Below, in pieces: positions 21,177 to 23,623 of a stretch of 32,000 bases of DNA. The translations under genes were made by a program, and so were the position numbers. This DNA comes from Edaphobacter aggregans (lineage in GTDB: Bacteria; Acidobacteriota; Terriglobia; Terriglobales; Acidobacteriaceae). Below the pieces are notes generated by a model. The model worked only from the letters and a program-made list of their open reading frames with translations, was not told where the DNA came from and did not search any database. Where the stretch lies: assembly GCF_003945235.1 (NCBI RefSeq), contig NZ_RSDW01000001.1, positions 840,001 through 872,000 on the forward strand, in the 5' to 3' direction. Position 1 is the stretch's first letter, and every line of letters begins with the position of its first letter.

Positions 21177-21615
21177 GCATTTTGTAATCAGCATTATGCC
21201 AATGCTCATTTGAGATATGCCTCCACTTTGACTCTGGTTTACGGTCCCGGCTTCGCTTCCCGTCGCGACGGCTCTTCCGGAGCTCTGCCAAACCCCGCGA
21301 ATCACCCCCTGCACTTTAATTACGTGTCCGAAGATGTCCAATTTCCGCTCATTGATCTGCGACTACACGCCACTGTTCCTCAAGGACGCCGCCGTTGCAG
21401 CCATTTGCATCTACCCCTTGACACCGCGATAAAGAACTCTGTAATTTCCCTCCTGCCACTTGTTGTCCGCTGGGCGTGATCCGAATCGACGTTCAGTTAC
21501 CCGGGCCCTTTGCTAGATGGTCGGGACAGGGCAAGGTCCTCATCTCCTCTGAGTTTTCTTCTTCTCCCTTCGATCGCGTACCTGCGTGAGGAAGGCTCCT
21601 GTCAGGAGGAACGAA

Positions 21616-22350
21616 ATGAAAGCGTTCAAGTTGCGAGAGCTGATGATCCATGTGCAGCCAGCTATTCCATGTAATTTGCCAAACACAATAATCTGCCAAG
21701 CAGCCTGCTCCGTGGTGGCAAACACCGTAATCTGTCAGGCAGCCTGCTCCGTGGTGGCAACGGCATGCCATCCTTGCACGGCTGTACACACCTGCGCCGG
21801 CTGCAGTGTAGTTGCCTGCACTGCACATCCGTGCAGCGCCTTTGCATGCAGTGCCAATGCATGCAGCGCTTTCCCGTGCAGCGCACATCCCTGCAGTGCC
21901 AATGCATGCAGTGCGTTTCCATGCAGTGCTCACCCGTGCAGCGTTAATGTGTGCAGCGTTCATCCGTGCAGCGTTAATGTGTGCAGTGCAGTCGCTTGCA
22001 GTGCTGCCGTTGCATGCAGTGCTCGGGTCTGCACCGCTGCAGTAACTGTGATCTGCAATGTCCCTGCAAGCATCTGTGGGGCAGTAACTGTAACTCCGCC
22101 GATCGACATCGATCCTGGCGGTCCAGTGGAATCGATAGCCAACCTCGCAGCGCTGAAAGCACAGCTCAAACAGCAACTCGCCGCTGTTGAAGAGCAGGAA
22201 AAATCTGTCGGAGAAAGTCTGAAGCCTCAGACCGTCGCCGAAGTCGATGACCTTCAGGCAAAGCTGCAAGGAGCTATAGAAGAGCTAAAGGCTCGTCGCG
22301 CCGAACTTGAGAAGCAGGAAAAGAGCAAAGGAAAGGAGCCTGCAAAATAA
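21616..22350 (+). CDS. 244-aa Cys/Ser-rich pentad-repeat protein with a C-terminal charged helical tail; candidate RiPP (lanthipeptide-type) substrate
   Basis: AGGAGG (21604-21609) lies 6 nt upstream of ATG 21616. There are 26 Cys between residues 19 and 154, with 13 consecutive [S/T]-x3-C pentads. Repeat copies differ only at synonymous sites in this frame. The gene is on the same strand as, and 52 nt upstream of, the two enzyme genes. Confidence 0.75.
   Translation: MKAFKLRELMIHVQPAIPCNLPNTIICQAACSVVANTVICQAACSVVATACHPCTAVHTCAGCSVVACTAHPCSAFACSANACSAFPCSAHPCSANACSAFPCSAHPCSVNVCSVHPCSVNVCSAVACSAAVACSARVCTAAVTVICNVPASICGAVTVTPPIDIDPGGPVESIANLAALKAQLKQQLAAVEEQEKSVGESLKPQTVAEVDDLQAKLQGAIEELKARRAELEKQEKSKGKEPAK
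21682..21759 (+). repeat. tandem 39-bp in-frame duplication (NTIICQAACSVVA / NTVICQAACSVVA)
   Basis: Units 21682-21720 and 21721-21759 differ at 4 of 39 nt: three synonymous changes and one Ile/Val change. Confidence 0.9.
21805..22032 (+). repeat. 15-bp-period coding repeat array ([S/T]-x3-C pentads) with 45-bp and 30-bp higher-order units
   Basis: The array encodes SVVAC TAHPC SAFAC SANAC SAFPC SAHPC SANAC SAFPC SAHPC SVNVC SVHPC SVNVC SAVAC, then SAAVAC and SARVC. The 45-bp units 21850-21894 and 21895-21939 encode identical peptides with 8 third-position differences. Confidence 0.9.
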
Positions 22351-22402: not shown

Positions 22403-23623
22403 ATGGATGGCGGCCGTAACAGCACGAGTGTTGTTCCCCTGCGCGACATCCTGGCGGCGAACTTCTGCGCCAACCGGGAATACACACTCGTCTTGTTTGA
22501 CCGCCTTCCTTCCGATCAGCAGGAGCTTCTCCGCGATCTGACCAAAGATCCTGAGTTTTACGGCGTACTCCTTCCGCCCTCAAACACACAGCGCAAGCCC
22601 AAATCCACATGTCAGAGCACGGCTCTGCTTCTCTACTCTCTGATGGAGCCTGGTCCCATTCCCGCCTACGTCCAGGCCACACTTGGTGCCAGTGCGAATC
22701 AAGCTATCGCCGAGCTCGTCCTCGATGAGGTCCTCATGATCGAGCACGAGGGTGCATTTGTCTGCGGCAGCGCAGCCTACGATCTTCTTTACAGCGAGCC
22801 ACATTCTCACCAAACCCCTACCGCGCTCTCCGATCTCACACGCAGCGCTCTCGAGTACGGGCAGATGCTCGGCCTCGAAGATCCCACTATGCTCTCCGCG
22901 CGCCTCTACGCCTACAACCGCGTTCCTTTATCCCCTCGCTGGAAGCGCCTTCTCCCCGATCGAGACGGCGCGGCAAAGTGGCTCGGCATCGACCGCAAAG
23001 GAGAGCTGCGCCCCCTGCTTGATGATCGATGGGAACTCATCGCTCCATCCGCCGAGATGGAGGGCTGGTTCCAATGGTCTCCGCGGTCCAAACCGCCCCG
23101 CAACGGGGACACCGAAACAGGCTACAAACTTTACGTAAGCCCCACCCCCGAGGTCACGCAACAAGCCTTCAAGGCCGTCGTCGACTGCCTTGCCAACTCC
23201 GAAGCCTACCACTTTAAAGCCGGCGACGATGGATATGGCCTGCTCCGCCCCGATAAGATCGTCCTCTACTTCCGAAGCTTCGCCGCCCTCGAGAAAGTCG
23301 CACACAGCATCGCCGAATGCCTTCCCGGCTGCCCGGCCCAAGGGGTGCCCTTCACGGCCGCCTTCAACGGCAGCAGACTTCTCTCCTGGGGGGTTGATCC
23401 CCCTCGCCAAAGCGGCGTTCTCGCGTGGCAGGAGCGTGAAAGCTGGCGCCTTTGGATCACCAACCGCATCGCCGTCGCCATGATCGCTGCCAGCCAATCC
23501 CAGAATGGCCGCCTCGCTCCGTGGCGTTTTGCCCTCGAACGTCTTCGCCTCGATGCAATCGACACTGACACCTGGACGCCACTCGCAGCATTTGGACACG
23601 CACCTGCAATGGAGGCGAACTAG
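22403..23623 (+). CDS. 406-aa protein of unknown family; candidate stand-alone lyase/adaptor of the operon
   Basis: The ORF is intact and ends 2 nt before the next start. It carries YKLYVSP (res 241-247) and FKAGDDGYGLLRPDKIVLYF (res 271-290), which I associate from memory only with HopA1-type / lanthipeptide lyase-type domains. There is no obvious SD at ATG 22403. Confidence 0.8.
   Translation: MDGGRNSTSVVPLRDILAANFCANREYTLVLFDRLPSDQQELLRDLTKDPEFYGVLLPPSNTQRKPKSTCQSTALLLYSLMEPGPIPAYVQATLGASANQAIAELVLDEVLMIEHEGAFVCGSAAYDLLYSEPHSHQTPTALSDLTRSALEYGQMLGLEDPTMLSARLYAYNRVPLSPRWKRLLPDRDGAAKWLGIDRKGELRPLLDDRWELIAPSAEMEGWFQWSPRSKPPRNGDTETGYKLYVSPTPEVTQQAFKAVVDCLANSEAYHFKAGDDGYGLLRPDKIVLYFRSFAALEKVAHSIAECLPGCPAQGVPFTAAFNGSRLLSWGVDPPRQSGVLAWQERESWRLWITNRIAVAMIAASQSQNGRLAPWRFALERLRLDAIDTDTWTPLAAFGHAPAMEAN

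Follow-up and report, generated by a model that had tools for sequence, protein, structure and literature searches.

The 32,000-nt stretch of the Edaphobacter aggregans genome analysed here (contig NZ_RSDW01000001.1, positions 840,001 to 872,000; hereafter the window, in whose numbering all coordinates are given) contains a cassette of three genes on the forward strand, encoding a putative precursor, an orphan protein of 406 amino acids (aa) and an 813-aa protein in which a Ser/Thr kinase is fused to a LanC-type cyclase. The original prediction, made from the letters of this DNA, had proposed that the 406-aa protein is the phospho-Ser/Thr lyase that such a kinase would require. From sequence conservation, gene linkage and a predicted structure we put the probability that it is the phosphate-eliminating subunit of a split lanthionine synthetase at roughly 85%. 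The cassette is laid out as follows:

21616..22350, + strand: putative precursor or substrate protein, 244 aa from the ATG at 21616 (the mechanically called open reading frame, ORF, begins at a GTG at 21586)
22403..23623, + strand: two-domain 406-aa protein, proposed trans-acting phospho-Ser/Thr lyase (homologues, conservation, AlphaFold2 model and Foldseek)
22430..23047, + strand: its conserved N-terminal domain, residues ~10-215 (predicted local distance difference test score, pLDDT, high over residues 10-130)
23048..23602, + strand: its C-terminal phospho-Ser/Thr lyase-fold domain, residues ~216-400 (Foldseek, HopA1 and RamC_N hints, hhalign to SpvC)
23611-23615, + strand: GGAGG ribosome-binding site of the kinase-LanC gene, within the 3' end of the candidate lyase gene
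23626..26067, + strand: kinase-LanC fusion protein, 813 aa (Pfam and NCBIfam)

The ORF of the candidate lyase begins with an ATG and holds all the motifs that had been quoted for it, namely YKLYVSP (residues 241-247), FKAGDDGYGLLRPDKIVLYF (residues 271-290), GVPFTAAF (residues 314-321) and LSWG (residues 327-330); the codons of K242 and K272 lie at 23126-23128 and 23216-23218. Its TAG stop (23621-23623) is followed by 'cc' and then by the kinase-LanC ATG at 23626, so that the reported 2-nt gap is confirmed on the sequence, and this gap, together with the ribosome-binding site inside the candidate lyase gene, suggests that the two genes are translationally coupled. The description of the protein as an orphan also holds: Pfam and NCBIfam gave zero matches at E<0.01, a sequence search of the Protein Data Bank (PDB) gave no match, and every named homologue is a 'hypothetical protein', the label that the Prokaryotic Genome Annotation Pipeline also gives to the homologues on two annotated plasmids. 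There are more than 2,291 homologues at E<=1e-3 (90% clusters), with zero precomputed Pfam domains among them, and given these many homologues the gene is real and under selection.

Fold and predicted active site of the 406-aa protein

An AlphaFold2 model of the protein was built from a 34-sequence alignment (mean pLDDT 80.4; predicted TM-score 0.74) and compared by Foldseek with the structures in the PDB. The best 24 matches of the full-length model are all phospho-Ser/Thr lyases (E 8e-7 to 2e-2, probability 1.00), and the first unrelated match follows at E 0.09. Among the 24 are:

9dk1_B: LxmY, class V lexapeptide dehydratase, E 8e-7
4rsx / 4rsw: HopA1, E 1e-6 / 8e-6
9ugq: SalKC (class III), E 3e-5
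8car: CuvL, E 1e-4
8sam: ThurKC (class III), E 5e-4
2p1w, 2q8y: SpvC, E about 1e-3
3i0u: OspF, E 2e-3
3bo6: VirA, E 3e-3

A separate model of residues 1-215 (pLDDT 78.7) found none of these lyases among its Foldseek matches, which places the lyase fold in the C-terminal half. As modelled, the 406-aa protein has the fold of the OspF/SpvC-type phospho-Ser/Thr lyase superfamily. The original prediction had likened its motifs to HopA1-type domains and to the lyase regions of LanKC/LanL enzymes, and had proposed a fold comparison with OspF/SpvC and HopA1; just this set fills the top 24 matches, with phospho-Ser/Thr lyases as its only members. What has to be narrowed is the extent of the claim, since the fold supports a phospho-Ser/Thr lyase for the C-terminal half (residues ~216-400) and the N-terminal half is a distinct domain.

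Sequence profiles point in the same direction, below their thresholds. With the isolated C-terminal domain as query, Pfam returned HopA1 (E 0.012; profile positions 21-100 on residues 235-312) and RamC_N (E 0.012; profile positions 17-66 on residues 218-272). The two are the only recurrent Pfam hints on residues 218-312, and they recur in 12 (HopA1, best E 3.7e-4) and 9 (RamC_N) of 34 family members, in all cases below the gathering thresholds. A third family, Rng_hyd_C (the C-terminal domain of aromatic-ring hydroxylases), gave weak Pfam matches in 20 of 57 lyase domains (best E 0.0021); they are probably noise, as no such structure is among the Foldseek matches listed.

These Rng_hyd_C matches, and the want of any significant sequence-family assignment, are what one might cite in favour of a fortuitous likeness of fold, with the protein having an unrelated function, for example in regulation, in immunity or in support of export. 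We hold this to be very improbable: the top 24 structural matches, at probability 1.00, belong to one functional superfamily, the independent weak sequence matches converge on the same two families, the Foldseek matches listed include nothing like Rng_hyd_C, and the gene keeps its place beside the kinase-LanC gene in nearly all of the 163 loci described below.

For the active site, SpvC from plasmid pSLT was compared with the family profile by hhalign, and conservation was examined in 82 family sequences from at least seven phyla. The residues of interest are:

23126..23134, + strand: K242-L243-Y244, counterpart of SpvC K104-F105-H106, the Lys being kept and the His replaced by Tyr (hhalign)
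23216..23218, + strand: K272, predicted catalytic base, counterpart of SpvC K136, CaoY K219 and ThurKC K94
23246..23269, + strand: R282-P-D284-K285...Y289 (LLRPDKIVLYF), predicted phosphate-binding Arg and active-site Tyr (spacing against CaoY)

In the weak hhalign register, G-Y-K242-L-Y244-V-S stands opposite G-D-K104-F-H106-I-S of SpvC and, further on, H-F-K272-A-G opposite K-W-K136-V-T. SpvC uses K136 as its catalytic base and K104 to activate the substrate (PMC9486802; PMC10604976). K242, S246, K272, R282, D284, K285, D332, R349 and R380 are invariant in the 82 sequences, Y244 is Tyr in 81 and Phe in one, and Y289 is Tyr in 80. K242 and K272, aligned with K104 and K136 and present in 82/82, were thus well chosen when they were put forward for mutagenesis. 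The spacing of K272, R282 and Y289 (+10, +7) is identical to that of K219, R229 and Y236 in CaoY, which have been validated by mutation (PMC9486802), and from this spacing R282 and Y289 would have active-site roles. By spacing alone, too, D332, R349 and R355 may be the counterparts of SpvC D201, R213 and R220; R282 and R349 never vary and R355 hardly does, and their matching to the phosphate-pocket arginines of SpvC (R148, R213, R220) is likewise by spacing alone. Extensions of the hhalign comparison to D201, R213 and R220, in global and in low-stringency form, were unreliable and were not used.

Several points weigh against a lyase. Sequence-based searches of the 406-aa protein found no significant family match, and the scores of the isolated domain (15.9 bits against a cut-off of 22.7 for HopA1; 15.5 against 27 for RamC_N) are sub-threshold. 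What the sequence and profile searches of the PDB returned (TNFR, Dixin, a GGDEF protein, TLE1) were chance matches and were discarded as noise. Half of the query being another domain, the TM-scores from Foldseek stay modest (TMq 0.22-0.34, TMt up to 0.49), and the hhalign comparison with SpvC has little statistical weight (probability 9-12%, E about 0.003), with the same register in two alignments. To our knowledge, no lyase activity has been demonstrated for HopA1 itself. Finally, the general-acid His (H106 in SpvC, H67 in ThurKC) is absent from the 406-aa family, which has Tyr instead. This last point is lessened by the LanY enzymes, which likewise do without a general-acid His and are nevertheless active lyases (PMC9486802). 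The K-x-Y site of the family sits between the K-x-H of LanKC/LanL and the Arg, without His, of LanY, and this variant is informative both on the evolution of these lyases and on which residue protonates the leaving group.

The N-terminal domain had no significant Foldseek match (best E 0.39) and its PDB profile search was empty. Its weak Foldseek matches (E 0.4-7) are mostly enzymes for peptides that are made on ribosomes and modified after translation (RiPPs), namely TigE, ThcOx, MccB, McbBCD, MadB, TglHI and PqqD, which we take to be carriers of RiPP recognition element (RRE) domains. We hypothesise, from the model, an RRE-like role for this domain in substrate binding or docking.

Such a role could also be read differently, the whole protein being a non-catalytic adaptor or chaperone, in which a degenerate lyase fold and the N-terminal domain hold the long precursor or stabilise the kinase-LanC protein and elimination occurs spontaneously or in the kinase-LanC protein. 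The weak matches of the N-terminal domain to RRE-carrying enzymes and the missing canonical His would fit this, as would the finding that LxmK and LxmY stabilise each other (PMC12141560). We nevertheless consider it unlikely, because the counterparts of the catalytic Lys pair and of the Arg are invariant across at least seven phyla, which is unexpected for a degenerate fold, because the kinase-LanC protein has no lyase-like region, and because LanY enzymes without this His are still active (PMC9486802).

Gene linkage and the kinase-LanC partner

Searched with a profile of the C-terminal domain, the family comprises 1,268 clusters (50% identity) at E<=1e-3, 808 of them at E<=1e-30. Among the profile matches listed, most are 380-420 aa long with the domain at ~210-400, and the shorter ones look fragmentary; the 150 matches listed from this search are all family members, with no distant relatives from LanY or LanKC. 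A scan of one genome per species of the Genome Taxonomy Database found a lyase homologue in 293 genomes, including a metagenome-assembled genome (MAG) of Rhodomicrobiaceae and cultured Bacillus strains. The family occurs in Acidobacteriota (many classes), Eremiobacterota, Gemmatimonadota, Chloroflexota, Planctomycetota, Armatimonadota, Bacillota and Pseudomonadota, and it is plasmid-borne in Paenibacillus peoriae HS311, Bacillus paramycoides and Cupriavidus oxalaticus X32. The nearest relatives to the window protein share 77-92% identity with it, and those that are named come from Acidobacteriaceae MAGs.

Failure of this gene to co-occur with the kinase-LanC gene in other genomes had been named as an outcome that would refute the lyase reading, and the two were found together in both directions. 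Starting from the lyase, a kinase-LanC orthologue lies downstream in 83 of 84 loci, and in all 83 that are testable, as the exception (L079) ends 125 nt past the lyase gene. The gap between the two genes is ~10 to 130 nt in most of these loci, with an outlier of ~1.2 kb (L020). In the reverse test, 80 metagenome loci were taken from the kinase-LanC alignment (36-91% identity) and those with at least 1,250 nt upstream were counted as testable: the lyase is directly upstream in 61/61, and most of the shorter contigs with appreciable upstream sequence hold a 3' fragment of it. Three records of the plasmid database hold a full-length kinase-LanC gene, and it is these three alone that hold the lyase. 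In nearly all of the 163 loci, the lyase gene is adjacent to and upstream of the kinase-LanC gene; the exception on strand is the Cupriavidus plasmid, where the two are ~1 kb apart on opposite strands, so that adjacency is kept and operon order is not.

Clustering of the ORFs of at least 100 aa across the 163 loci left three conserved genes, for the precursor, the lyase and the kinase-LanC protein, and no protease, ABC transporter, immunity or LanK/LanX-type gene is conserved across them. The flanks of the cassette differ in every lineage, which is unusual for a RiPP cluster. The PADLOC matches were confined to generic kinases (PD-T4-6, Mad6), with neither the lyase nor the precursor recognised, and on this outcome the cassette is not a known defence system.

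The partner protein has three recognisable parts:

23626-24045, + strand: conserved N-terminal domain, residues 1-140
24052-24783, + strand: Ser/Thr kinase (Pkinase), residues 143-386 (Pfam)
24973-26058, + strand: LanC cyclase (LANC_like), residues 450-811 (Pfam)
25675-25677 (C684) and 25807-25815 (C728-C729-G730), + strand: predicted zinc ligands of the LanC domain, Cys-Cys-Cys ('CCG')

It matches the NCBIfam model of LanL (NF038150) at positions 233-804 of 851, with 131.6 bits against a cut-off of 650; since the model is matched from position 233 on, the protein lacks the N-terminal lyase domain of class III and IV enzymes. Across 68 orthologues no change is seen in the kinase residues K154, H249-x-D251, N256 and D275 (the Gly of DFG is kept in 67 of them) or in the LanC residues H620, W683-C684 and C728-C729-G. 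Because these catalytic residues are invariant, the protein should be both an active kinase and a zinc-dependent cyclase. The zinc set of NisC and LanL is Cys-Cys-His (CHG); the Cys-Cys-Cys set is known from the promiscuous cyclases of ProcM-type LanM enzymes, where it is linked to high reactivity. The absence of a lyase domain from the kinase-LanC protein, and the dependence of its LanC domain on dehydro-residues, which no other part of the cassette can provide, are why a lyase is needed in trans.

The N-terminal 140 aa of the kinase-LanC protein have no Pfam or PDB match and no detectable sequence similarity to the N-terminal domain of the lyase; a by-eye impression that they are PqqD-like was not confirmed by the Pfam and PDB searches. 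In Cupriavidus oxalaticus a domain of this 140-aa type is also fused to a 2-oxoglutarate-Fe(II) oxygenase, beside the lyase gene (L086:8393-9466, - strand). This suggests that the domain is a portable substrate-recognition module, and that the oxygenase is an extra tailoring enzyme of the Cupriavidus lineage.

Precursor proteins and the proposed mechanism

The ATG of the putative precursor gene at 21616 is preceded by AGGAGG at 21604-21609. The protein has an N-terminal motif, MKAFKLRELMIHV, which is followed by a core of ~130 aa made of Cys, Ser and Thr repeats and by a C-terminal amphipathic helix or coiled coil (LAALKAQLKQQLAAVEEQE...). It has 26 Cys and 19 C[ST] dipeptides, and a Cys recurs every five residues 14 times in a row. 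The corresponding DNA is repetitive:

21812..22023, + strand: tandem repeats of 15/30/60 nt encoding C-S-x-x-x pentapeptides (Tandem Repeats Finder, periods 15, 30, 45, 60)

Homologous precursors were defined by the motif F-x3-[DE]-[LV]-[MLATV]-x2-[VILD], at least three Cys and a length of at least 40 aa; of 132 loci, 94 have an ORF of this type upstream of the lyase, where chance would give 0.012 per locus. Their lengths run from 58 to 280 aa; both termini are conserved and the cores are hypervariable (repeats of CTPSPPD, CYASGGG, CTACSAC and CASHPxLTPCY). Long Cys-repeat precursors with the FKxxDLM motif are also present at L001:9282-9950, L007:4190-4969 and L077:4156-4974. In Thermoanaerobaculia and a related Acidobacteriota MAG (L025, L029, L035, L081), the precursors upstream of the lyase have 85-112 aa, with four to six copies of a Pro-rich C-T-P-S/T-P-P-(D) unit quite unlike the C-S-A-x-P repeats of the window. 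On the Paenibacillus peoriae HS311 plasmid (NZ_CP011513.1, L085:3858-4610) the precursor consists of three tandem copies of a whole unit, formed by a helix, the motif MFRTVDLAANV, a CGITCLASCG core and a helix; either several units may be joined in one precursor, or a unit's C-terminal helix may act for the one that follows.

A substrate of this kind bears on a further alternative. OspF, SpvC and HopAI1 act on the activation loops of kinases (PMC9486802), and the 406-aa protein is always encoded beside a kinase; like OspF and SpvC it might be a kinase regulator that irreversibly strips an activating phospho-Thr off the 813-aa protein's kinase domain or off a different kinase. We give this little credence, since its best structural matches are RiPP lyases (LxmY, LanKC/LanL), since the LanC partner requires dehydro-residues for which the cassette has no other source, and since the co-encoded substrate is rich in Ser, Thr and Cys.

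With the 406-aa protein as the lyase of a split lanthionine synthetase, the pathway would have three steps. (i) The kinase domain of the 813-aa protein would phosphorylate many Ser and Thr residues in the repeat core of the precursor. (ii) The C-terminal domain of the 406-aa protein (~216-400) would then beta-eliminate the phosphate, giving dehydroalanine or dehydrobutyrine. In this step K272 would take the alpha-proton and K242 would polarise the carbonyl and help to bind the phosphate, while R282, and probably R349, would bind the leaving group and Y244 would occupy the place of the usual His general acid. (iii) The zinc-dependent LanC domain, with its predicted Cys-Cys-Cys ligands, would add the thiols of neighbouring Cys to the dehydro-residues. 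From the C-S-x3-C-S register of the window precursor, abutting thioether rings from Ser(i) to Cys(i+4) are predicted, up to ~19 of them. The N-terminal domain of the lyase (~10-215) probably docks it on the kinase-LanC protein, binds the precursor, or both, and by analogy with the CaoKY and LxmKY heterodimers the lyase and the kinase-LanC protein may form a complex.

Taken as one joint proposal, the cassette could define an unrecognised lanthionine class, in which a trans-acting LanY-like lyase with its own N-terminal domain for recognition or docking and an N-terminally extended, three-Cys kinase-LanC protein modify proteins of 58-280 aa, not short antibiotic peptides, and build up to ~20-30 consecutive thioether rings. 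The resulting ladder would be flanked by the N-terminal motif and the C-terminal coiled coil. Since neither a protease nor an exporter accompanies the cassette in a conserved manner, the modified protein may persist as a cross-linked 'lanthi-protein', serving structural, redox or metal-related purposes in soil bacteria of many phyla. We offer this combined picture tentatively, regarding it as possible rather than probable.

Relation to known systems and genomic surroundings

Lanthipeptide classes are defined by the way in which their dehydration and cyclisation activities are packaged, and in these terms the cassette would be a class-IV-like synthetase split in two, in which a LanY-like lyase works in trans. 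It joins parts of class IV (Ser/Thr kinase, zinc LanC) to the logic of class V (a separate HopA1-like lyase), and its lyase has gained a new domain. The proposed system shares features with four known groups and differs from each of them: (i) The LanY proteins (LxmY, CaoY, SprH3, TvaD/ThoD; HopA1, PF17914) of class V lanthipeptides and thioamitides are, like the 406-aa protein, stand-alone and found alongside another protein that bears the kinase. Structurally LxmY comes closest, the Lys/Arg/Tyr spacing is that of CaoY, and neither group has the His general acid. However, the 406-aa family has the invariant K242 where CaoY has R187, the protein falls below the HopA1 threshold and carries an extra conserved domain of ~200 aa, it is paired with a fusion of a eukaryotic-type Ser/Thr kinase and a zinc LanC and not with an APH-type LanK (PF01636) plus LanX, and the family occurs mainly in Acidobacteriota and other non-actinobacterial phyla. 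(ii) The lyase domains of LanKC and LanL (RamC_N, PF25816) have the same fold (Foldseek E 3e-5 to 8e-4) and the same first Lys of K-x-H, and the partner domains are of the types found in LanL (Pkinase and a LanC with zinc ligands). In contrast to these fused enzymes, the lyase here is a separate gene in every locus examined, it has Tyr for His and a sub-threshold RamC_N score, and the partner's zinc site is CCG and not the CHG of LanL. (iii) With the type III effectors OspF, SpvC, VirA and HopAI1 the 406-aa protein shares the fold (E about 1e-3) and the aligned, invariant equivalents of K104 and K136, whereas it is not a secreted effector, has no docking motif for mitogen-activated protein kinases, has Tyr in place of H106, and its proposed substrate is a co-encoded peptide or protein. 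(iv) In class VI the lyase domain is truncated, and the LanKC-b enzymes of this class, like the cassette, depart from the full lyase-kinase-cyclase architecture; they are single polypeptides acting on miniature peptides, whereas here a separate full-size lyase goes with precursors of 58-280 aa. The LanKC-b enzymes meant here are the streptococcal lanthionine synthetases of He et al. 2023, as cited in PMC12328550.

A literature search, with subscription journals outside its reach, found no description of this cassette architecture. A rule that looks for a kinase plus a LanC would presumably call such loci 'class IV' and leave their dehydration step unexplained; a peatland survey reported 73 class IV lanthipeptide clusters among its biosynthetic gene clusters (PMC13642348). 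The lyase assignment completes the pathway on paper, and the pathway is directly testable, since it occurs in the cultured hosts Paenibacillus peoriae HS311, Bacillus paramycoides, Bacillus pfraonensis and Cupriavidus oxalaticus X32. The greater surprise of the cassette may lie in its precursors: the one in the window exceeds known lanthipeptide precursors by far in length and repetitiveness, and together they point to thioether-ladder proteins whose size has no known parallel among RiPPs.

In the window, the cassette is flanked by housekeeping genes (sulfite reductase, siroheme synthase, GltX, phospholipase C, KdsD, SerB). Two ORFs behind the kinase-LanC gene, at 26172-26423 and 26513-26887, were considered as further members and rejected, as neither homologues nor domains were found for them and their translations do not resemble those of coding sequence. 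They fall in a segment of ~1 kb with lower GC content (26068-27125, 0.505), which holds two terminator-like hairpins on the minus strand. Up to ~20 kb the plus strand is strongly C-rich, with a GC skew of -0.2 to -0.35 that is an effect of codon usage: the housekeeping genes of that part have a GC content at third codon positions (GC3) of ~0.8-0.84 and a GC3 skew of ~-0.65. The candidate lyase and kinase-LanC genes fall in between (GC3 0.70, skew -0.41), and the bias is much weaker in the precursor gene, serB and an amylase-like gene (GC3 0.53-0.60, skew -0.1 to -0.2). This contrast may reflect the level of expression or a different history of the cassette.

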